A stretch of 32,000 bases of DNA from Pyrobaculum aerophilum str. IM2 (GTDB lineage Archaea; Thermoproteota; Thermoprotei; Thermoproteales; Thermoproteaceae), in the NCBI RefSeq assembly GCF_000007225.1, contig NC_003364.1, forward strand, positions 1,440,001 through 1,472,000, given 5' to 3'. Under the pieces are notes generated by a model. That model saw nothing but the letters and a program-made list of their open reading frames with translations. It ran no database searches and had not been told where the DNA came from. Of this stretch, positions 20,787 through 32,000 are shown in pieces (within the stretch, counting starts at the first letter, position 1; each line of letters begins with the position of its first letter). Both the position numbers and the translations under genes were made by a program.

Positions 20787-22052
20787 ATGACTGCAGACGC
20801 CGCGGTGGCCCTCTTACTAGCCGCATTGGTGGTAGGAGGGATGGTAGCCCGGCCGATATACCCAAAGCTACCCACTTGGTCGCTGATGTCCCTCGCCGCG
20901 TTTATCGCCGTGTTCCTCGGCCCCCTGACCGTAGACGACGTGCCCCGGGTTATAAACGTAGAGGTCGTGTTGTTTCTCGTCGGCATGTTCTCTATAGTAG
21001 CCTTGGCGGAGCTCAGCGGACTCCTAGACGCCTTTGCCTATTGGTTCGTCTCGTTATTTAAATCGAGGCTGTCCGTATACACAGCCTCTTCGTTATTATT
21101 CGGCTTGCTGTCCGCCTTTGCCGTAAACGACACAGTGGCTCTAATGGGCCCCCCAGTTGCCGCGGCAATTGCCAGAGCCTCTGGAATAGAGTATAGGCAC
21201 ATGTTTTTACTCCTAGCCTTCTCGCTCACAATAGGCTCTGTTATGACGCCAATTGGCAACCCTCAAAATATGTTAATAGCTGTGGAGTCTGGAATAAAGG
21301 CGCCGTTTATCACCTTCCTCTCCCGCCTCGCCATACCTACGTTGATAAACTTAATTATTACCCCCGTAGTCCTCTTTAAGATACTCGGCATTAAAAACGA
21401 AAGAGTCAGCTTTGTGGCGTTGCCCAAGGAGTTAATTAAAAACGGCAGAGACGCGGCGGTAGCGGCTGTGGTATTAATCGGCACTGTGGCGGCGATGGCG
21501 GCCAACGACCTGGCCGCCCTCTCCGGCCACCCCCATATTCACAACATAGGCTTTATCCCCTTTGTCGCCGCGTCGCTACTTTATTTCTTCGCCTCATCGC
21601 CCAGAGAGGTGTTAGCCAGAGTGGAGTGGGGCACTGTAATTTTCTTCCTCGCCATGTTTATAACCATGGAGGCCATATGGCGCGGAGGCATTTTACAGCC
21701 GATAATCTCCGCAGTACTGCCAACGTATACAGGTAGCGCCTACGATATATTAGCCATTACGGCCATATCCCTATTTTTGAGCCAAGTGTTGAGCAACGTG
21801 CCCTTTGTAAGCCTCTTTTCTACTTATTTACACAGCCTTGGAGTAACCGACCCTAAGGCGTGGCTTACATTAGCAATGGCGTCAACAATAGCGGGAAATT
21901 TGACGCTGTTGGGAGCCGCCTCAAACATAATAATATTAGAAGTGCTGGAGACTAGGTTCCACTCCACTATAACCTTCGCTCAATTTATAAAATACGGGTC
22001 GCTTATTACGGCGATAAACACTGCTATTTACCTCCCCTTTCTCCTCATTTAA
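20787..22052 (+). CDS. ArsB/NhaD-superfamily anion permease
   Basis: 421 aa, polytopic. TPIGNPQNMLIA and a second half repeating the motif context (GNLTLLGAASNIIIL) are typical of this superfamily. Confidence 0.65.
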   Translation: MTADAAVALLLAALVVGGMVARPIYPKLPTWSLMSLAAFIAVFLGPLTVDDVPRVINVEVVLFLVGMFSIVALAELSGLLDAFAYWFVSLFKSRLSVYTASSLLFGLLSAFAVNDTVALMGPPVAAAIARASGIEYRHMFLLLAFSLTIGSVMTPIGNPQNMLIAVESGIKAPFITFLSRLAIPTLINLIITPVVLFKILGIKNERVSFVALPKELIKNGRDAAVAAVVLIGTVAAMAANDLAALSGHPHIHNIGFIPFVAASLLYFFASSPREVLARVEWGTVIFFLAMFITMEAIWRGGILQPIISAVLPTYTGSAYDILAITAISLFLSQVLSNVPFVSLFSTYLHSLGVTDPKAWLTLAMASTIAGNLTLLGAASNIIILEVLETRFHSTITFAQFIKYGSLITAINTAIYLPFLLI

Positions 22053-22746
22053 GCGCCTCTTTTATGCTCTTTAGAAAAGAGAGAGCGCTATCAACGCTGT
22101 TTTGCAAGCGGCGCATAAACGCCGTTCCGACCACCACGCCGTCGGCGCCAGCCTCTATAAGCCTCGCGGCTTTTGAAGGGGAGTCAATGGCAAAACCTGC
22201 CACTATATACACATCTCCCGCGAGCTGTCTGATAATTTTCACGTTCCTCTCCACGTATACAGGCAGCTCCACACCAGTTGCCGCGTAGAGGCCGAGGTAT
22301 ATAAAATCCGGCTCTGCGGAGGTCAGCCGCTTTACTAGCCAGTGGGGGAACTTCCCCGGGACGAAAAACGCCGGCGCTAGGGCGTATTCCCTGGCGTATT
22401 TGAGGTACAGCTCAAGCTCCTCCGGGAAGTCTATTAATAAGTCCGGCGCCAAAACCCCCCTTGCTCTGATCTCGGCCGCCAGCGTGAAAAGACCATCTAG
22501 ATTTCCCCTATGCTCTTCCCAATACGTCATGATATAGGTCGGGGCCTGGGGCCGGAGCCACAGAGGCTCCCCCGCCTCTCTATGGGCCTTTCTTATAAAA
22601 GGACCGTCGTATTTTGGGTTTTTACTCGGCAATCCCAGCTCGAAGAAATCCGCTATCCCCTCCAGACCTCTAATGGCCTTCTCGTACGTGTCTTTACTCG
22701 GCCAGCTGGCCACGAGGTATACCCCGAGCCCAGGCTTGCTGAGCAT
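22045..22746 (-). CDS. trpA: Tryptophan synthase alpha chain (divergent)
   Basis: ELGLPSKNPKYDGPFIRKAHREA corresponds to E.G.PFSDP.ADGP.IQ. AGFAIDSP and GADGVVVGTAF are also present. Last gene of the trp string. Confidence 0.8.
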   Translation of the reverse strand: MLSKPGLGVYLVASWPSKDTYEKAIRGLEGIADFFELGLPSKNPKYDGPFIRKAHREAGEPLWLRPQAPTYIMTYWEEHRGNLDGLFTLAAEIRARGVLAPDLLIDFPEELELYLKYAREYALAPAFFVPGKFPHWLVKRLTSAEPDFIYLGLYAATGVELPVYVERNVKIIRQLAGDVYIVAGFAIDSPSKAARLIEAGADGVVVGTAFMRRLQNSVDSALSFLKSIKEALK

Positions 22747-22747
22747 A

Positions 22748-23326
22748 TTACGCCAAGTCTATGAAGTTTTTTATTATCCTCAGTCCGTATGGCGTTCCCA
22801 CAGACTCCGGGTGGAATTGCACGCCGAATGTGGAGTGTTCCACGTGCCTCACTCCCATAATCTCGCCGTCGTCGAGAGACACCGCCTCTACTTTTAAAAC
22901 CTCGGGCAAGTCGTCAATAACAAGGCTGTGATACCTCATGGCTCTAAAAACCTCGGGCACTCCCGCGTACAACACGCCGCCCATGTGGCGCACCTCGCTG
23001 GTTTTCCCGTGTTTAATCGTCCGGGCTTTGCGCACTCTTGCGCCGAATACCACGCCGATTATTTGGTGGCCCAGGCAGACTCCCAGTATTGGCACCCTTC
23101 CGGTGAACTCCCTAATTATATCGGGCGAGGCGCCTACGTCCCTCGGGTTTTCTGGGTGCCCCGGTCCCGGCGATATAATAATGCGATCTGGCCTAATCCT
23201 CTCCACGAGCTTCACCGACACCTCGTCGTTCCTCAAAACAATAGGCCTGCTGCCGGCCTCTGCCACGTAGTGGGCTATGTTATAGACAAAACTGTCGTAG
23301 TTGTCCACAATAAGCGTCAAGTCCAT
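22748..23326 (-). CDS. trpG: Anthranilate synthase component II (glutamine amidotransferase)
   Basis: GVCLGHQ catalytic Cys motif and VQFHPES. Confidence 0.9.
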   Translation of the reverse strand: MDLTLIVDNYDSFVYNIAHYVAEAGSRPIVLRNDEVSVKLVERIRPDRIIISPGPGHPENPRDVGASPDIIREFTGRVPILGVCLGHQIIGVVFGARVRKARTIKHGKTSEVRHMGGVLYAGVPEVFRAMRYHSLVIDDLPEVLKVEAVSLDDGEIMGVRHVEHSTFGVQFHPESVGTPYGLRIIKNFIDLA

Positions 23327-24585
23327 AGCCCCAGCGCCTCTTTTAACGCTTTAAGTTTTGCCTCAGTTTCCCGGAACTCCCTCTCGGGCGTTGAGTCATA
23401 CACCACCCCAGCCCCGGCTTGAAGTCTGAGTAGCCCGTCTTTAACAATGGCGGTTCTAATCACAATGGCGAATTCGGACATATTCGGCGAGAGGAAGCCA
23501 ACTGAGCCGGCATAATAACCCCTGGGCTCGTCTTCAAGCTCGGCGATTATCTCCATGGCCCTCACCTTGGGAGCCCCCGATACAGTGCCGGCGGGGTGTG
23601 TGGCAAATAACGCGTCTACTGGAGTGGCCTTTTTCTCGAGGACGCACAAAACCCGCGACACTATGTGTTGAACTCTGCTGTATTTCTCTACGGCGAATAA
23701 CTCGTCGACTTTTACAGTGCCGGGCCTGCAGACTCTGCCCAAGTCGTTGCGGGCGAGGTCCACTAACATATAGTGCTCTGCCAGCTCTTTCTCGTCTTGC
23801 AACATATCCTCCTCAAGGGCTAAGTCCTCTTCCTCAGTGGCCCCCCTCGGCCTTGTCCCAGCAATGGGGTGCGTCTCCGCCCTATCTCCCTGGACTTTTA
23901 CTAATAACTCAGGGGAAGTGCCCAAGAGGTACAGCCCCCTCCACTTTATAAAGTACATATAGGGAGAGGGGTTTATAGATGCCATGGAGGTGTAGAGGGA
24001 GAAGAGATCCCCATCCACCGCGAAATCCACATGCCGCGAGAGCACCACTTGGAATATCTCACCCTCTTCAATCCTCCTCTTCGCCTCCGCAACCCACCTC
24101 TTAAACGAACTGTCGTCAGTCCCAGCCACAGGCCCCCTCACGCGGGGCGAGTCGACTCCCCCGCTTTTTAGGGCCGGGAGCTCTCCGTAAATATAGGCGC
24201 GGCCTAGGAGTTTGTCGTACAAAACCCAGCCCTCTGGCTTTATGAAAAACGCCGCGGGGAGCGTCTTGTCGACCTTCCCGTAACGTAACAGCAATGGCTC
24301 TATATACGCAGAGGCGTCGTAAGAAACAGCCCCTATGACTACGTCGCCTCCAAACGGCGAGTTGAACTGTCTTATCTTCTTATACGCAGTATACGCCATT
24401 TTATATACGTCGGGCCCCCACGAGACGTATTTCTCAGCTACTCCCCACGCCACGAGAGTATATCTACTGCGTTCAGCGTAACCCATACCCGATTCTAACA
24501 ACGCCACGAACTCCTCCCCATCTGCGTAAAGCCCCCGCGCGAGGGCCCTGGGCTCAGGCAGTTTTGATAGGGGGACTTTTCTCAT
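23317..24585 (-). CDS. trpE: Anthranilate synthase component I
   Basis: LARNDLGRV, PIAGTRPRG and HPAGTVSGAPKVRAMEII chorismate-binding motifs. Overlaps trpG by 10 nt and trpD by 4 nt. Confidence 0.9.
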   Translation of the reverse strand: MRKVPLSKLPEPRALARGLYADGEEFVALLESGMGYAERSRYTLVAWGVAEKYVSWGPDVYKMAYTAYKKIRQFNSPFGGDVVIGAVSYDASAYIEPLLLRYGKVDKTLPAAFFIKPEGWVLYDKLLGRAYIYGELPALKSGGVDSPRVRGPVAGTDDSSFKRWVAEAKRRIEEGEIFQVVLSRHVDFAVDGDLFSLYTSMASINPSPYMYFIKWRGLYLLGTSPELLVKVQGDRAETHPIAGTRPRGATEEEDLALEEDMLQDEKELAEHYMLVDLARNDLGRVCRPGTVKVDELFAVEKYSRVQHIVSRVLCVLEKKATPVDALFATHPAGTVSGAPKVRAMEIIAELEDEPRGYYAGSVGFLSPNMSEFAIVIRTAIVKDGLLRLQAGAGVVYDSTPEREFRETEAKLKALKEALGLWT

Positions 24586-25583
24586 GTCTTAGAGGACTCA
24601 ACTGCCTCCATTAGTTTCCTATACGCCGCGCCTTCCCGTATGGTATTTATGGCGAGCTCGTAGCCGTCTTTCACGTCTTTCACAACCCCAGCGACGTATA
24701 GGGCAAAGGCGGCATTTACGGCGATGGCAATAGAAGCCTCTAATAGCTCGCCCCGAAGCCCCGCCAGGGCCTTAGCAACGGCCTCTTCTTTAGAAGACGC
24801 CCTGGGCAGTGGAACGCGGGGGGCGCCTAAGTCGCCGGGAGATATTGTATAACGCTCAGCCGCGCCCTTCCTTACTTCATAAACTACGGTCTCTCCCTCG
24901 GTGGTCACCTCGTCGACGCCAGAGCCGTGTACCACCACGGCGTGTTCAAAACCCAGCCGCGCCGCCGCCTCGGAGATCACATCTAGAAGGCGTGTTTCAG
25001 CAACGCCGATTAATTGCCTTTTCACCAGGCCGGGGTTGGCGAGGGGGCCAACGATGTTAAACACAGTGCGGAAGGGCAACTGCCTCCTCACGGGGGCCAC
25101 TCTGGCGAAGGCGGGGTGGTACTTAGGCGCGAAGACAAAGGCGAAGCCCACCTCTTCCACTAGACGCGCAGCTCTCTCAGGTCCGATCTCTAAATTGTAC
25201 CCCACCGCTTCCATAAAGTCCGCGCTTCCAAACATGCCAGAGGCGGACCTATTCCCGTGTTTTAACACCTTAGCGCCAGCGGCGGCGGCCACTATAGCTG
25301 CGGCGGTGGATAAGTTTATAGTCCCGGCGCCGTCGCCGCCTGTTCCCGCAGTATCTATGGCCTCTACAGTAAGGGGTACTCTCACTGCGAACTCTCTGGC
25401 CATTTTAACAAACCCGGCGACTTCCTCCGCGGTCTCCCCCCTTACTTTCATCGCTGTGAGAGAAGCCGCAATTTCCACCTCGCTTAGCGTCCCGGTGAGA
25501 ATCCCCTTGCCGAGGATATAAGCCTCATCGGCGTTTAAGCTCTGGCCGTGGCCGAGCTTTCTCAATAGGGCCCTTAAATCCAC
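24582..25583 (-). CDS. trpD: Anthranilate phosphoribosyltransferase
   Basis: DTAGTGGDGAGTINLSTAAA and KHGNRSASG motifs. GTG start. Confidence 0.9.
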   Translation of the reverse strand: MDLRALLRKLGHGQSLNADEAYILGKGILTGTLSEVEIAASLTAMKVRGETAEEVAGFVKMAREFAVRVPLTVEAIDTAGTGGDGAGTINLSTAAAIVAAAAGAKVLKHGNRSASGMFGSADFMEAVGYNLEIGPERAARLVEEVGFAFVFAPKYHPAFARVAPVRRQLPFRTVFNIVGPLANPGLVKRQLIGVAETRLLDVISEAAARLGFEHAVVVHGSGVDEVTTEGETVVYEVRKGAAERYTISPGDLGAPRVPLPRASSKEEAVAKALAGLRGELLEASIAIAVNAAFALYVAGVVKDVKDGYELAINTIREGAAYRKLMEAVESSKT

Positions 25584-25613
25584 CCCGAATGCATATACTC
25601 AAAAACGGACCTC

Positions 25614-25622
25614 TATATAAAA
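25614..25622 (-). promoter_or_regulatory. Possible internal TATA-like box (minus strand TTTTATATA) between trpB and trpD
   Basis: Lies 30 nt upstream of the trpD GTG and abuts the trpB stop. The spacing is longer than for other genes, so the call is weak. Confidence 0.3.
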
Positions 25623-25623
25623 T

Positions 25624-26856
25624 TTACCCGAGGAATTTCTCGTAGGCGTCTGAGTCCAACAGCCCGTGGCCTGAGAGGTTAAAGGCAATAACAGATCCCC
25701 TCGGCAATTTCTTTGCGAGGTCAACCGCGGCTTTAATGGCGTGGGCGGACTCTGGAGCTGGCACAATGCCCTCAGTTCTCGCGAAGAGAAGCGCCGCCCT
25801 CATAACTTCCTCTTGCGGATACGCCACGGCTTCTACAATTCCCAATTTCCTCAGGAGCGAGAGGCTGGGCGCCGCGCCGTGGTAACGCAAGCCTGCGGCG
25901 TGTATGGCGGGCGGGACGTAGTCGTGTCCCAGGGTGTACATTTTCAACATGGGGAGGACTCCCACGGCGTCTGGGAAGTCGTATTTGTACTCGCCCCGGG
26001 TCAACTTTGGAGCCGCCTCAGACTCCACGGCCACAAACCGCGTCCTCCCAAACCCCTCCCCCCTTAGCTTCATCCCAATCATGGGGTAGGTGAAGCCGGC
26101 GAAGTTAGACCCGCCTCCTACGCAAGCCACAGCGACGTCGGGCTCCTCCGGCAGTTGCCGCACGGCCTCAAGCCCTATAACAGTCTGGTGGAGGAGCACG
26201 AACTCCATGACGCTACCGGGGAGGTACTTCCTCCTCTCCCCAGAGAGGACGTACTCAACGGCTTCAGAAATGGCAATCCCCAGAGACCCCGGGTGGTCAG
26301 GCCTGTAGTGGCGCCTGCCGGCCTCAGTCACGTCGCTTGGGCTTGGGTAAACCACGGCGCCATAAGCCCTCATAAAAGTGAGCCTCTGCCTCTTGGAGTT
26401 ATACGAAGAGCGCGTCATAAACACCACAGCCCTTAAGCCGAAGAGGGCCGCCGCCAGGGAAACCGCCATTCCCCACTGCCCAGCCCCCGTCTCAGTAGCC
26501 ACCTCCACAGCGCCGTCAGCCTTTGCGTAATACGCCTGGGCAAGGGCTGTGTTCAACTTATGGCTACCGACGGGCAGGACGCCCTCATATTTGTAATAAA
26601 TCCTCACGCCGGTCCCCAGCGCCTTTTCAAGACCCTCGGCGCGAAAAAGAGGCGTGGGCCTTCCAACCCGCCTATACGCCTCCCTCACCTCCTCGGGTAT
26701 GGAGACCCACCTCTCCGCGGTAAACTCTTGGTCTATAAGCGCAGAGGGCAGAATTTTCGACAACAGCCCAATCCTGCTCTCCCCCTCGTCGGGATCCCTC
26801 GGAGGGGCCAGGACCGAGGGCAAATCGGCGGCGATGTTATACCACCTGTCTACCAC
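25624..26856 (-). CDS. trpB: Tryptophan synthase beta chain, TrpB2 (TrpEb_2) type
   Basis: The N-terminus RWYNIAADLP, the extended 410-aa length and the PLP-lysine context PVGSHKLNTA are TrpB2 hallmarks. GTG start. Confidence 0.9.
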   Translation of the reverse strand: MVDRWYNIAADLPSVLAPPRDPDEGESRIGLLSKILPSALIDQEFTAERWVSIPEEVREAYRRVGRPTPLFRAEGLEKALGTGVRIYYKYEGVLPVGSHKLNTALAQAYYAKADGAVEVATETGAGQWGMAVSLAAALFGLRAVVFMTRSSYNSKRQRLTFMRAYGAVVYPSPSDVTEAGRRHYRPDHPGSLGIAISEAVEYVLSGERRKYLPGSVMEFVLLHQTVIGLEAVRQLPEEPDVAVACVGGGSNFAGFTYPMIGMKLRGEGFGRTRFVAVESEAAPKLTRGEYKYDFPDAVGVLPMLKMYTLGHDYVPPAIHAAGLRYHGAAPSLSLLRKLGIVEAVAYPQEEVMRAALLFARTEGIVPAPESAHAIKAAVDLAKKLPRGSVIAFNLSGHGLLDSDAYEKFLG

Positions 26857-27114
26857 CCCGAAGACATAGCCGAGAGATATAACTCCCTTAAATATATTAA
26901 ACTAATGGACTTCGCCTATCGCAGAAACGGCGCGGAAGCTTAAAGATCCAATTTACCAGGGCGCAGAACTAAGAGACATTAAAAGAGATTCCCAAAGTAA
27001 CGATATATGGAAGTCCCATTTATTTGACCGGAATGGGAAAACAAAGGACGCACGAGGGCACTACTAGGGAAAGGAAACAAGAGCGGTGTACCAAAGAAGT
27101 GAAAAATATATAAC

Positions 27115-29160
27115 TTATAGATATCTTTTTTTCCTTTTCCAATACTTTACATCTTTGTATGAAAATCTCTCTCCTTTAAGTCCTAAATAAAATTCTTTTA
27201 TATCTGGATTGTTCAATAACTGTTCTGATGGTCCGTCAAGCACCACTCTCCCATTTTCTAAAATATAGCCATAATTGGAAATTCTCAAAGACATATAGAC
27301 ATTCTGCTCTGCGAGCAGAATTGTGATTTTCTCGTGCTCGTTCATGGATTTCAAAATTTGGAACAACTCTTCTGTTACTTTTGGCGAGAGGCCTAGTGAC
27401 GGCTCGTCAAGGAGCATTACTTTTGGTCTCATAATTAATGCCATGCCGATTACTAACATCTGTTGCTCGCCGCCAGAGAGATAACCAGCTCGAATATCAG
27501 TTCTCTCTTTTAACCTAGGGAAGTATTGAAAAACAATATCTACATCGGGCTTTGCCCCAAGTTTTCTTGCCTGTCGTTGGGCGAGTATTAAATGTTCTTT
27601 TACAGTTAGCTCTTCAAAAACTCTTCTCCCCTCAAGGACGTGTATAATCCCCAATCTGGCAATATCTTCCGGCTTCCTATTAGTCAGGTCCTCTCCGTTG
27701 TATAAAATCCTCCCCTTTGTAATCTCCCCTCTTTCAGTTTTCACAATGCCGCTTATAGCCTTAAGCGTAGTTGACTTCCCCGCCCCGTTAGGCCCCACGA
27801 GAGATACGATTTCTTTCAATGCCTCTGCTGTGGCCTCAGGCCTTTTGTAATAACCGGCCATCACGGCGGGGGTTCTCACTAGTATTTCCCCATCTTCTGC
27901 AATCTTTATCTCGGTATTTGCTATAGGCTTACCCACAGTGTCAAGCCTTACCTCATTATCTGGGTGAACTGTCGCTATGCCTGATACTTCCGTCATTCCC
28001 CATATACGCTTTAAATTAACTCCTAGAGCTCTATAGAACTTGAGATAGTCGGGGCCTAGGAATGAGCCGCCGACATATGCATATTTTATTCTCTTAAGAC
28101 CTGTCTTGTCAAGAATTGAGCGGTATATCAACATTCTTGATATATGCCATAATAGTGTTAACCAAAATGGTATCCTTTTTCCTGTTAACTCTGCCTCTAC
28201 TTTCCTATATCCTATATTTAGAGCAATTTCGAAAATCTTCTTGTCAAAATCCCAGGTATCTTCTAGATGTTCCATTATTTTACTGTAAATCATTTCATAA
28301 ACTCTGGCCGGCCCGAACATGAAATGCGGCGCTATTTCTCTAAAATCTCTCCAAAAAGTCTCTGGCTCCTCTACAAAATTTATCTTAAAGCCAACAAGCA
28401 TATGCATAGCCAGCGACATCATTTGTTCTCCTATCCAACCAAAGGGAAGATAAGACACATATTCGAAATTCTCTTGTATAGGATCTACCTCCCACAAGTT
28501 TTTAGCCATAGACATCATCGAAGAGTATGTAAGCATAACTCCCTTAGGCCTTCCCGTGGTCCCCGACGTGGAGAGGATGAGACAAACGTCATCTGGGTGT
28601 GTCTTTGCAATAAGTTCCTCTAGTAGTTTAGAATCGCTTTTTCTAACCTCTTCACCAAGTTTTTCCACCTCTTTCCAACTTAAAAGACCAGGCTCCTTTA
28701 TATCTTTGTACTGCCACATCATTCTCTCATCCCAGTAAATGATGTATTCCAATTTCGGTAGATCTTTTTTAACTACTAGTATTTTATCAACCTGTTCTTG
28801 ATCTTCAGCTACAACAACTTTAACATCTGTATAGTCGAGCCAGTAGGCTCTCTCTTCAGGCAAAGTATCTGGATATACCCCCACTGAAATACCTCCAAGA
28901 GCCATTGCAGACTGTTCTGCAATTAAAATCTCTGGCCTGTTGTATCCCACTACAGCTAAGTGATCCCCTCGTCTAAATCCAAGAGCCAACAGACCATAGG
29001 CAAACTTACTTACTCGCTCATAATACTCATGCCACGTAGTCGGTCTCCATATGCCCCAAGTTTTTTCTCTAAACGCTACGCCCCTTGGGTTGAGCAAAGC
29101 TCTCTCTTGTAGAAGTTTGGGAAACGTGTCGCCTTTTAGAAACTCCCAAGGCCGCCTCAT
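27115..29160 (-). CDS. Chimeric ORF: FAA1-type acyl-CoA synthetase N-terminal domain (aa 1-449, truncated before A7) fused in frame to a LivF-type ABC ATPase that lacks its first ~30 aa (aa 450-681); possible deletion-derived pseudogene
   Basis: The AMP-binding part has STSGTTGRPKG (A3), WGMTE (A5) and GEILVRTPAVMAGYYKRPEATAEALK. It then runs directly into EIVSLVGPNGAGKSTTL (Walker A), LSGGEQQ and VMLLDEPS. The TGD, hinge and A10 lysine motifs are all missing. The junction is at about nt 27813/27814. The start overlaps the livG stop (ATGA). Confidence 0.75.
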   Translation of the reverse strand: MRRPWEFLKGDTFPKLLQERALLNPRGVAFREKTWGIWRPTTWHEYYERVSKFAYGLLALGFRRGDHLAVVGYNRPEILIAEQSAMALGGISVGVYPDTLPEERAYWLDYTDVKVVVAEDQEQVDKILVVKKDLPKLEYIIYWDERMMWQYKDIKEPGLLSWKEVEKLGEEVRKSDSKLLEELIAKTHPDDVCLILSTSGTTGRPKGVMLTYSSMMSMAKNLWEVDPIQENFEYVSYLPFGWIGEQMMSLAMHMLVGFKINFVEEPETFWRDFREIAPHFMFGPARVYEMIYSKIMEHLEDTWDFDKKIFEIALNIGYRKVEAELTGKRIPFWLTLLWHISRMLIYRSILDKTGLKRIKYAYVGGSFLGPDYLKFYRALGVNLKRIWGMTEVSGIATVHPDNEVRLDTVGKPIANTEIKIAEDGEILVRTPAVMAGYYKRPEATAEALKEIVSLVGPNGAGKSTTLKAISGIVKTERGEITKGRILYNGEDLTNRKPEDIARLGIIHVLEGRRVFEELTVKEHLILAQRQARKLGAKPDVDIVFQYFPRLKERTDIRAGYLSGGEQQMLVIGMALIMRPKVMLLDEPSLGLSPKVTEELFQILKSMNEHEKITILLAEQNVYMSLRISNYGYILENGRVVLDGPSEQLLNNPDIKEFYLGLKGERFSYKDVKYWKRKKRYL

Positions 29161-29936
29161 ATTGTCGCCTTTCCCATATAGGCGCTTGCCACATATTCGC
29201 TTTTCAAAATCTCAGCAGGCGGGCCTTCTGCTATTTTTGATCCGAAGGAGAACACCGAAACAACGTCTGCTAAATCGTACACTAGTGATAGATCGTGTTC
29301 AACTAAAACTACTGTTATTCCCAGAACTTTATTTATTTCGATTATGTACCTTGCCATATCTTCTCGCTCCTCTCGTGTTAGTCCAGACATAGGCTCGTCT
29401 AGCAACAAAATCTTAGGCTTACCAGCCAATGCTCTGGCTACGTCTACTTTTTTCTGTAAGCCATAAGGTAGCGAGCCCACTATTCTATGCCTATATTCAT
29501 ACAATTCCATAAATTCAATTACTTCTTCGGCTATTTCACGTATTTCTTCTTCTTTTCTGAAATAGGGGCCATGCCATAAAGCCGACGTAAATATATCAAT
29601 TACACTATCTTTTATAGATGCCAAGGCCCCTGTCATTACTACTTCTAGTACTGTCATATGTTTAAAAACCTCAGAGGTTTTTTGAAAAGTTCTCCCTATT
29701 CCAATTTTTGCTCTGACGTGCGGCTTAATTCTTGTTATATCCCTACCTTGGTATAATACTTTTCCCTTTCTCGGCTTGATAAAGCCTGAGAAGACATTTA
29801 ATAATGTTGTTTTACCTGCGCCGTTCGGGCCTACAATTGCGTGGATTTTCCCAGGTAACACTTCTAAAGTCACATCTCTTAACGCCGTCACACCACCAAA
29901 TTTCACCTCAATATCGTAGCCCCCTAATAAAACCAT
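29157..29936 (-). CDS. livG: LivG-type branched-chain/hydrophobic amino-acid ABC transporter ATPase
   Basis: Walker A GPNGAGKTT, signature LPYGLQKKV, Walker B ILLLDEPMSG, and the LivG-specific insertion after the Q-loop. Confidence 0.85.
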   Translation of the reverse strand: MVLLGGYDIEVKFGGVTALRDVTLEVLPGKIHAIVGPNGAGKTTLLNVFSGFIKPRKGKVLYQGRDITRIKPHVRAKIGIGRTFQKTSEVFKHMTVLEVVMTGALASIKDSVIDIFTSALWHGPYFRKEEEIREIAEEVIEFMELYEYRHRIVGSLPYGLQKKVDVARALAGKPKILLLDEPMSGLTREEREDMARYIIEINKVLGITVVLVEHDLSLVYDLADVVSVFSFGSKIAEGPPAEILKSEYVASAYMGKATI

Positions 29937-30066
29937 GTACCGTTTACTTAAATTCCCTTTTATGTCTTTCTCTAATTATAAATAATGAAAAATAATGATT
30001 TTAATACTAACATCCACAATATAACGTAAAATTATACTTCTAAATTTAAATATTGAAAGTTAAAAA

Positions 30067-30080
30067 ATATATATATATAT
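30067..30080. repeat. (AT)7 microsatellite inside a 160-nt AT-rich spacer
   Basis: Read directly from the sequence. It lies 17 nt from the stop of the 30097..31365 gene. Confidence 0.9.
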
Positions 30081-30096
30081 TTTTTATTTTGTTTAA

Positions 30097-31365
30097 TTAT
30101 ATTCTTTCTATATATATTTTCTTCAGTCTTTTATAGAAAGCAACTTGCGAATTTATAAAATTCAAAAGATTTTCCTCAGAGACCTCCCCTTTTACTTTTA
30201 TATATGCCACGGGCACTTCGCCGTATTCTGGATGCAGCTCGCCCACGACCTTAGCCTCCAAGACTGCGGGATGTCTCTTGAGGATTTCTTCTAAGTCGCG
30301 CGGGAAAATGGGATAGCCTTTATACTTTATCATGCGCTTCTTCACCCCTTTGAAATATAAAAGGCCTTCTCTCTCCTCCAATATGTCGCCAGTCCTCAGC
30401 CACCCATCTATAAACGCCCTCTTAGTCTCCTCCGGATCTTTATAACCGCGCATAACCCAAGGGGCCTTCACCGCCAGTTCTCCATCCTCTAAGAGCCTAA
30501 TTTCCACAAGCGGCAGCGGGGCCCCCACGGAACCCTTGCCGTACGCGCTGGGAGGCTCAAAGGTGAGCACCAAGCCCTCCGTAAGGCCGTACACTTGCAA
30601 AATCCTCACGCCAGTAACTTCCTCAAACCTCGCCCTTAAGTCGGGGGCTAAGTAGGCTCCGCCTGATACGGCGAATTTAGCCCCCAACTTCCCCACTCCT
30701 ATTTTTAACACCTCGGCGTAAAAAGCCGGAGCCCCAACGATAACTGTTGCTTTGGAAAGCTCTTCGACGACATTAGGCGACAATTTCTTCATTAAACGCA
30801 CCATGCCTCCCGCCGCCAGGGCGGCCATAGACGTGACCAGCCCCAGCACGTGGGTAATGGGCGCCGTGACGTACACCACGTCGGCTTTCTCAAGCCCCAT
30901 GGCAAGAGCCAATGAATGGGCGTTGATCCAAAGAGACGAGGTTTTGTTTAAAACCTGCATGGTTCTTCCCGCGATCCCTGCGTAATACATTACAAACGTC
31001 GTGTCGTATGTCCAACCGCCACCATTTGGCGGGCTGTTTACAGAAAGCGTTTTATAATTTTTTAAAACCTCTGCGTTCTGTTGTAGAAATTCCTCATCTC
31101 CAACAATTAAATCCGGCGAAAAGTCCTCTATTATCATTTTCAAGTCTTCGGAGACGGTTAGGGGATCCACCAAGGCAACCTCCCCGCCGCCGTGTAATAG
31201 CCCCATAAGCGCGGCGTAAGACCACAGTGAATTCCTAGCGGCGAAAACAACTCTGCTGTTCAAAGCCCACTTAGTGGCCTTTTCGAACAACTCCCTATAG
31301 GTTAAACAGCTTTCCCCTTCACATATTGCTAATTTTCCGGAAAGCGTTACTGACCAAAACTTCAT
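30097..31365 (-). CDS. Short, divergent AMP-binding (acyl-CoA ligase-like) protein with a degenerate P-loop and no A10 motif
   Basis: VYGLTEG (A5), WLRTGD (A7) and KRMIKYKGYPIFPRDLEE (A8) are present. The A3 position reads YYAGIAGRTMQV instead of YTSGTTGxPKGV. The ORF stops at ...FYKRLKKIYIERI, before the PKTxSGK (A10) region. Confidence 0.7.
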   Translation of the reverse strand: MKFWSVTLSGKLAICEGESCLTYRELFEKATKWALNSRVVFAARNSLWSYAALMGLLHGGGEVALVDPLTVSEDLKMIIEDFSPDLIVGDEEFLQQNAEVLKNYKTLSVNSPPNGGGWTYDTTFVMYYAGIAGRTMQVLNKTSSLWINAHSLALAMGLEKADVVYVTAPITHVLGLVTSMAALAAGGMVRLMKKLSPNVVEELSKATVIVGAPAFYAEVLKIGVGKLGAKFAVSGGAYLAPDLRARFEEVTGVRILQVYGLTEGLVLTFEPPSAYGKGSVGAPLPLVEIRLLEDGELAVKAPWVMRGYKDPEETKRAFIDGWLRTGDILEEREGLLYFKGVKKRMIKYKGYPIFPRDLEEILKRHPAVLEAKVVGELHPEYGEVPVAYIKVKGEVSEENLLNFINSQVAFYKRLKKIYIERI

Positions 31366-31461
31366 AATAAAAGTATAGTGAGCATGAGTAATTAAAAAAC
31401 GTTATTCTAACTAGATAAGAAATTTAAAAGGGCAGTTTCGCGCGGGCTGAGAAGATATCCA

Positions 31462-32000
31462 CTAGCTATCCCGATCCCTCAGCCCCTTGACTCCCCCTAG
31501 GAGGATATCGATAGCTGGTAACACAGCACCGGCCTCGGATATGTCGCGCACCGGAGTAAGAGGAACGTCGTATTTCTCTGCCAGAGCGATTAAGTCGTCA
31601 CAACGCCGTTTTATCACTTCTTTTTTCACCTCATTAACTGCCGAGACGTCATACATACGGTTTATGAGATCCTCACGGCCAAGCATTTCGCAAAAACGCC
31701 TCCAGAATTTTTCCTCCACTGCGCCCAATGCAACGCGGCCTCCGGCGCACTCATAGGTGGTATAAAAGGGGTATTTGCCCGAGAGGGGGAGATCGCCTGT
31801 GTCTTTTAATAAGGCGAAATTCAGCAGATTTAACAAGTAGGCAACGCCCTCCATACTGACTTCCACATATCCCCGGCGTCCAGCGGCGACCGCCGCCGCT
31901 ATTATAAACGCGGCTAATAATCCCGTGGCTACGTCTACGCTCTGCGGAATAGGCGGCGCGTCGCGTATCAGTCCGGCCAGGCCTGCGAAATTAATGTCGT
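31462..32000 (-). CDS. Family III CoA-transferase (CaiB/BaiF / alpha-methylacyl-CoA racemase family); N-terminus beyond window edge
   Basis: The ORF-track start at 31866 is an internal GTG. The frame stays open to 32000 (DINFAGLAGLIRDAPPIPQSVDVATGLLAAFIIAAAVAAGRRGYVEVSMEG...), which matches the interlocked-dimer core pattern of this family. Confidence 0.7.
   Translation of the reverse strand, partial: DINFAGLAGLIRDAPPIPQSVDVATGLLAAFIIAAAVAAGRRGYVEVSMEGVAYLLNLLNFALLKDTGDLPLSGKYPFYTTYECAGGRVALGAVEEKFWRRFCEMLGREDLINRMYDVSAVNEVKKEVIKRRCDDLIALAEKYDVPLTPVRDISEAGAVLPAIDILLGGVKGLRDRDS

Follow-up and report, generated by a model that had tools for sequence, protein, structure and literature searches.

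Within a 32,000-nt stretch of the Pyrobaculum aerophilum str. IM2 chromosome (NC_003364.1, positions 1,440,001 to 1,472,000; hereafter the window), we analyzed a 681-residue open reading frame (ORF) that begins as an acyl-CoA synthetase and ends as LivF, an ATPase of Liv-type ABC importers. We assign a probability of about 0.92 to the reading that this ORF is an IM2 deletion scar, in which a 4,004-bp deletion fused the stumps of a ligase gene and of livF into one frame. A recent chimeric pseudogene is the reading that fits the ORF best: intact, separate genes are present at the orthologous site in relatives, the sequences are joined at a single breakpoint, and the junction is reproducible between assemblies. 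As such, it is an ordinary strain-specific gene loss and a new instance of a familiar type of event.

A 4,004-bp deletion relative to intact strains

Four other P. aerophilum assemblies (L001–L004) carry an intact livG-ligase-livH-livM-livK-livF operon at the same chromosomal site. In the interval from livG to the TrpB-like gene they encode the ligase (639 aa), LivH (298 aa), LivM (347 aa), LivK (443 aa), and LivF (260 aa). The neighborhood is common to the window and all four assemblies; it extends from genes for a CoA-transferase and a short ANL ligase as far as the trp genes, with flanks that are 99.1–99.9% identical. In blastn comparisons, window positions 21245–27812 corresponded to L001 21920–15353 (99.86% identity) and positions 27812–32000 to L001 11349–7161 (99.93%), and L002–L004 gave a like picture. 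As the two colinear blocks share one base, the window lacks exactly 4,004 bp of the intact sequence. This bears out the proposal of a first-pass annotation, made from the sequence alone, that a single internal deletion had run from mid-ligase to early livF; the intact cluster it suggested looking for in related loci was found in the four P. aerophilum assemblies and in P. ferrireducens.

In the intact strains, the left breakpoint reads ...GCATTGAAAGA/TGGCTGG... and the right breakpoint ...GATGGGCA/AATCGTATC..., while the window reads ...GCATTGAAAGAAATCGTATC... across the junction. There are no filler bases, and the 40 nt on either side match the parental sequences exactly. Within the junction codon, the G derives from ligase codon D450 (GAT) and the last A from LivF codon Q29 (CAA), whereas the middle A (27812) is a 1-nt microhomology present in both parents. 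The first-pass annotation was right in placing the junction in frame; its position, given as 27813/27814, has to be moved into codon 450 (27811–27813), with the shared A at 27812. A repeat-mediated deletion was considered and rejected. A repeat search of the intact sequence revealed two candidates, a 22-nt imperfect direct repeat (L001 11390 and 15346) and the pentamer GATGG, which occurs close to both breakpoints, but recombination at either would produce another junction, the loss amounting to 3,956 bp or GATGGGCA being kept. The event was non-homologous, with 1 nt of microhomology.

The course of events can be outlined as follows. The ancestor of IM2 had the six-gene operon livG-ligase-livH-livM-livK-livF, encoding a HAAT/Liv-type ABC importer together with an embedded FAA1-type synthetase. 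A single illegitimate deletion of 4,004 bp then removed the 190 C-terminal codons of the ligase, the whole of livH, livM, and livK, and codons 1–29 of livF. The remaining stumps were joined in frame by chance (1 in 3), giving the 681-aa ORF and keeping its translational coupling to livG. Judged by the closest intact lineage, which is only ~0.1% divergent, the deletion is very recent.

Two incomplete halves and their predicted loss of function

The protein encoded by the window ORF is 100% identical to AAL64213.1 of P. aerophilum IM2, and databases name it either "ABC transporter ATP-binding component" or "AMP-binding protein". It consists of ligase residues 1–449, the hybrid codon E450, and LivF residues 30–260, which form residues 451–681. 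The next-best database matches came from other P. aerophilum assemblies and were proteins of 639 aa named "AMP-dependent synthetase/ligase", with 99% identity at 66% query coverage. Matches to Pfam and NCBIfam profiles confirmed that one ORF joins two incomplete proteins, as had been noticed in the first pass. The coordinates of all features are listed in Table 1.

Table 1. Features of the chimeric locus and its surroundings (positions in the window)
Feature	Position	Strand	Description
Chimeric ORF	27115..29160	-	681 aa, ATG start; GenBank AAL64213.1; product of the deletion
Ligase remnant	27814..29160	-	codons 1-449 of a 639-aa FAA1/FadD11-type acyl-CoA synthetase
Motifs kept in ligase remnant	A3 28540-28572, A5 27988-28002	-	A7, A8 and C-terminal domain missing
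Junction codon	27811..27813	-	GAA (E450)
LivF remnant	27115..27810	-	residues 30-260 and stop codon
Motifs kept in LivF remnant	Walker A 27769-27795, LSGGEQQ 27460-27480, Walker B 27397-27420	-	
livG	29157..29936	-	intact, 259 aa; protein 100% identical to LivG of intact strains
TrpB-like PALP gene	25624..26856	-	first gene past the deletion; colinear with intact strains
Short ANL ligase	30097..31365	-	422 aa, own AMP-binding_C domain; upstream of livG, untouched by the deletion
Probable reference base error	28476		window G, C in 12 of 12 other assemblies; Q229 instead of E229
Probable reference base error	28689		window C, G in 12 of 12 other assemblies; G158 instead of R158

The ligase half belongs to the FAA1-type synthetases, as annotated before. 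Pfam AMP-binding matched residues 19–438 (E 2e-66) over model positions 3–384 of 384, i.e., end to end, and NCBIfam FadD11 was matched over profile positions 2–420 of 585. Both the A3 motif STSGTTGRPKG (residues 197–207) and the A5 motif WGMTE (387–391) of ANL enzymes are present. Residues 1–449 share 99.6% identity with the 639-aa enzyme of P. aerophilum and 45–50% with homologs from Thermus, Archaeoglobus, and Ammonifex. The ligase part ends with GYYKRPEATAEALK (residues 436–449), and the intact ligase continues past ALK with DGWLYTGDVGMLTEDGHLVYLGRKEDM. The break thus lies just before A7 (DGWLYTGD) and A8 (GRKEDM), inside the ANL N-terminal domain. In the family alignment, the near-invariant DGWL.TGD (A7), GR.ED (A8), and TRTRK (A10, with an invariant lysine) all lie downstream of it, which, together with the intact 639-aa protein, upholds the earlier claim that the ligase stops short of A7, A8, and A10. 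Neither the TGD of A7 nor the A10 motif TRTRK was found anywhere in the 681-aa ORF, and the C-terminal domain that carries the A10 lysine is absent. Pfam AMP-binding_C and AMP-binding_C_3 had no match in the chimera; the homologs carry PF23562. The claim that the break does not fall on a domain boundary stands in structural terms, since the break is inside the ANL N-terminal domain, but it does not stand for the Pfam AMP-binding model, the end of which coincides with the break.

In the LivF half, EIVSLVG occupies residues 450–456, and the part reads EIVSLVGPNGAGKST starting at residue 450. Pfam ABC_tran matched residues 449–588 (profile positions 11–136 of 137, E 1e-23), and NCBIfam LivF matched residues 450–660 (profile positions 32–236 of 237, E 7e-52) with a score of 176 bits against a cutoff of 441. 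The core motifs GPNGAGKST (Walker A, 456–464), LSGGEQQ (signature, 561–567), and VMLLDEPS (Walker B, 581–588) are retained, as is the EQN switch region. The deleted residues 1–29 of LivF, MLLLDNVQVIYDKFILGVRSVSMKVPDGQ, comprise β1, the A-loop Tyr11, and β2, in agreement with the earlier statement that some 30 residues including the A-loop are missing. The closest solved LivF structure is PDB 1JI0 (Thermotoga maritima TM1139), and in the alignment to it the deleted Tyr11 adjoins the V-YYG segment, with the first β-strands inside the deleted part. The assignment of Tyr11 as the A-loop residue follows what is generally established for ABC ATPases and does not derive from this alignment. A caveat raised in the first pass, that the ligase C-terminal part or the LivF N-terminus might be present after all, is settled by alignment, in which both are absent. 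The tryptic peptide specific to the chimera is EIVSLVGPNGAGK; the corresponding peptide of intact LivF is VPDGQIVSLVGPNGAGK.

For adenylation, ANL enzymes depend on the A10 lysine and on alternation of their domains around the A8 hinge; in ABC ATPases, β1 and the A-loop are required both for nucleotide binding and for folding of the β-subdomain. Searching the 32-kb window by tblastn with the intact-strain LivH, LivM, and LivK gave no match, so that the LivF remnant lacks its cognate permease subunits and binding protein there, as the first-pass annotation had noted. As catalytic and structural elements are lost and neither membrane subunits nor a binding protein are left, neither half should work, and the product is predicted to be non-functional.

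Nothing speaks against the deletion as such. Some observations weigh against a dead relic. The frame is open throughout, Walker A, the signature motif, and Walker B survive in the LivF remnant, and livG is intact. A hint of transcription comes from three short Logan contigs (L012–L014; SRR4028136, SRR4136274, and SRR4136276), which correspond to window positions 26053–29923, 26921–29916, and 27045–29933, beginning 3–20 nt inside the livG ATG and ending shortly past the stop codon of the chimera. They have the appearance of assembled transcripts, namely of a leaderless livG-chimera mRNA. A copy of the lost segment relocated elsewhere in IM2 is unlikely; two LivK scans of genome contigs returned no P. 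aerophilum match, in a collection whose inclusion of IM2 was not confirmed. An AT-rich, TATA-like element precedes the livG ATG by ~25 nt, and the stop codon of livG overlaps the start codon of the chimera (ATGA, in ...ACAATATGAGGCGG), an overlap already seen in the first pass. Because translational coupling is kept, because of the TATA-like element and the transcript-like contigs, and because the event is too recent for further decay, the chimera may still be transcribed and translated.

Origin of the deletion and rival readings

The 90% cluster of the IM2 protein includes one more sequence of 681 aa, P0271, which is distinguished by residues 158 and 229 alone and was found on 11 contigs. Eight of these (L007–L014) all carry the junction string GCATTGAAAGAAATCGTATCTC and are colinear with the window at 99.93–99.98% identity. 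The assemblies come from NCBI, JGI, ENA, and Logan. One of the contigs is the Logan assembly of SRR606249, which holds Illumina data from the Shakya mock community, and another comes from PRJEB12287, in which this community was sequenced at Liverpool; DNA of P. aerophilum IM2 is part of the community. Since the junction recurs in independent assemblies, including mock-community data, the deletion is a real property of IM2 DNA, and the misassembly that the first-pass annotation wished to see excluded is excluded by eight independent assemblies.

Within the deletion reading, the event could have happened during laboratory propagation of IM2 and not in nature, which we regard as possible but on balance rather unlikely. 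Every deletion-bearing contig of traced origin represents IM2 DNA (two of the eight, the others being GCA_013329805.1 (L007), JGI 3300030446 (L008), and those of four Logan runs), the deletion-bearing contigs are almost identical to each other, and all four other P. aerophilum assemblies are intact, one of them at ~99.9% identity. However, the 2002 reference and the mock-community DNA used about a decade later both have the deletion, which must therefore predate distribution of the stock.

A different question is whether the chimera does anything for the cell. It is very unlikely that the protein is stably made together with LivG and has acquired some activity, be it as a soluble ATPase pair of LivG and the LivF remnant tethered to an acyl-binding ligase fragment or as a dominant-negative partner for paralogous Liv systems. 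Slightly less probable still is a functional new fusion, i.e., a soluble module of LivG plus a ligase-ATPase kept by selection, which the first-pass annotation had already ranked as the less parsimonious alternative and which our data leave unsupported. The open frame, the translational coupling to an intact livG, the retained ABC core motifs, and the possible transcript signal would fit such a module. However, the breaks lie inside folded domains and remove A7, A8, A10, the A-loop, and β1, and an in-frame outcome is expected by chance in 1 of 3 cases. In addition, the closest relatives, ~0.1% divergent, are intact, a distance that leaves no time for selection to act.

The architecture is, furthermore, confined to one strain among 1.84e9 cluster representatives and 5.8e9 clusters. 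A word-indexed protein search returned no protein with AMP-binding followed by LivF, and outside the query's own cluster none covered more than 72% of the query. Likewise, an exhaustive phmmer scan of the 1.84e9 representatives gave no ligase-LivF fusion: the top match reached 382 bits in one stretch, whereas a true fusion would score higher, and the multi-stretch matches that were checked proved to be LivM-LivG-LivF or LivG-LivF fusions, or ligases. Two kinds of candidate for a natural ligase-ABC fusion were discarded, namely two-stretch matches of 830–876 aa, which are LivM-LivG-LivF proteins, and P0168, a LivG tail followed by a ligase fragment. The only carriers are thus IM2-derived sequences, with no recurrence in independent lineages, and the protein searches found none of the unrelated genomes with the same 449 + 232 architecture that the first-pass annotation had named as the main threat to a deletion scar. 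We found no paper describing the chimera (AAL64213, Q8ZV43, WP_011008681) or the accessions of the intact-strain assemblies.

The junction could also have arisen as an artefact when the 2002 Sanger reference was cloned or assembled, with an intact operon in real IM2, a reading that we consider extremely improbable. The exact deposited protein (P0001) occurs on one contig only, and the reference seems to hold two base errors within this very ORF. Neither point outweighs the identical junction and colinear flanks shared by the eight independently assembled contigs, mock-community Illumina data among them, and there is no repeat at the breakpoint that could collapse an assembly. The two base differences (Table 1) were scored against 12 other assemblies, eight deletion-bearing and four intact. 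Relaxed selection on the remnant as a cause of R158G and E229Q was rejected, as the eight other IM2-type assemblies keep the ancestral bases. For this reason, and because both positions are variable in the family, the differences are probably errors of the 2002 reference and not signs of decay. Elsewhere in the window, position 21293 is A, compared with G in L007–L009.

The direction of the change follows from the spread of the intact operon. In P. ferrireducens, all six genes likewise lie next to the trp operon at this site, in the order livK-livF-livG-ligase-livH-livM (L005 5019–11864), i.e., with livK-livF moved upstream of livG, and Thermus oshimai has the order livG-ligase-livH-livM-livK-livF, identical to that of the intact P. 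aerophilum strains. We further surveyed 80 genome loci with a LivK homolog (L015–L094), retrieved with a LivK profile from many phyla, including Armatimonadota, Chloroflexota, Bacillota, Gemmatimonadota, and Deinococcota. An FAA1-type ligase was present in 62 of these loci, and the exact order livG-ligase-livH-livM-livK-livF in 35. The first-pass annotation had placed a ligase inside liv operons, and its gene order agrees with Thermus oshimai and the 35 sampled loci. As Thermus and 35 of the 80 sampled genomes share this order, IM2 represents the derived state. The converse, that IM2 is ancestral and the other strains gained a 4-kb insertion splitting a fusion gene, has only the formal symmetry of the alignment in its favor and can be dismissed, because the full-length ligase (~640 aa, with AMP-binding_C_3) and LivF are conserved in bacteria and archaea in the same operon order, and an insertion cannot make the missing conserved halves of two proteins.

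Related systems, significance, and neighboring genes

An ABC importer with an embedded acyl-CoA synthetase seems to be widespread, with a substrate that is uncharacterized. The location of acsL genes beside liv transporters has been remarked on in passing (PMC12979851). Like the FAA1/COG1022 (FadD11/FadD15-like) synthetases in HAAT (LivFGHMK) operons, the chimera follows livG with an ATGA overlap; unlike them, it is truncated before A7/A8, lacks AMP-binding_C_3 and the A10 lysine, and is joined to foreign sequence. With LivF of HAAT importers, it shares residues 30–260 and the core motifs, whereas the first 29 residues are missing and the partners LivH, LivM, and LivK have been deleted. HAAT fusions of the types LivM-LivG-LivF (~830–876 aa) and LivG-LivF (tandems of ~500–570 aa) resemble the chimera as multi-domain proteins with a LivF-like ATPase. 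However, they join complete domains, several of them are separate cluster representatives, and none joins AMP-binding to LivF, while the IM2 chimera is a singleton made from two broken domains. The type of event is familiar from lacI-lacZ deletion chimeras, in which one deletion between co-oriented genes gives a hybrid ORF under the signals of the upstream gene. In those chimeras the retained lac parts are functional, in contrast to IM2, where both parts are without essential elements.

The finding matters mainly for database curation: the type-strain reference of P. aerophilum encodes a chimeric relic, which should be flagged as a deletion-derived pseudogene, and the reference bases at window positions 28476 and 28689 should be corrected. 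As IM2 lacks a carboxylate or amino-acid importer that its sister strains possess, metabolic inferences drawn from IM2 are not valid species-wide. Together with the ~99.9%-identical intact strains, IM2 offers a natural knockout pair for a conserved, uncharacterized transporter-ligase module; if IM2 is a natural null, comparing it with its intact sister strains would reveal the substrate of the module. Regarding annotation, UniRef G7VCG4 (P0009; P. ferrireducens, L005 8001–9926) is an intact 641-aa acyl-CoA ligase that bears the name "ABC transporter ATP-binding component", which apparently spread from the IM2 chimera.

With respect to the surrounding genes, livG is now an orphan ATPase subunit. 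The spacer between the end of livF and the TrpB-like gene measures 258 nt in both the window and the intact strains. The 422-aa ligase, directly upstream of livG, has as neighbors an acyl-CoA dehydrogenase, a family III CoA-transferase, a 4HBT thioesterase, and a thiolase accompanied by a DUF35-type partner (according to the genes listed for L001), and together they form an island of acyl-CoA metabolism around the transporter. The G+C content of the liv-ligase cluster is much lower than that of the surrounding genes, at 0.40–0.45 in P. aerophilum (window 27115–29936; L001 9225–16050) compared to 0.55–0.60 for the trp genes, and at 0.51–0.56 in P. ferrireducens (L005 5019–11864) compared to 0.62–0.64 for its neighbors. 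The closest homologs outside Pyrobaculum are split between bacteria and archaea. By composition and homology, it is possible that the cluster was acquired horizontally long ago. Lastly, trpA of GCA_003400145.1 (L003 20419–21118) is split into calls of 78 and 161 aa, likely by a frameshift or sequencing error, and is intact (233 aa) in IM2 and L001.

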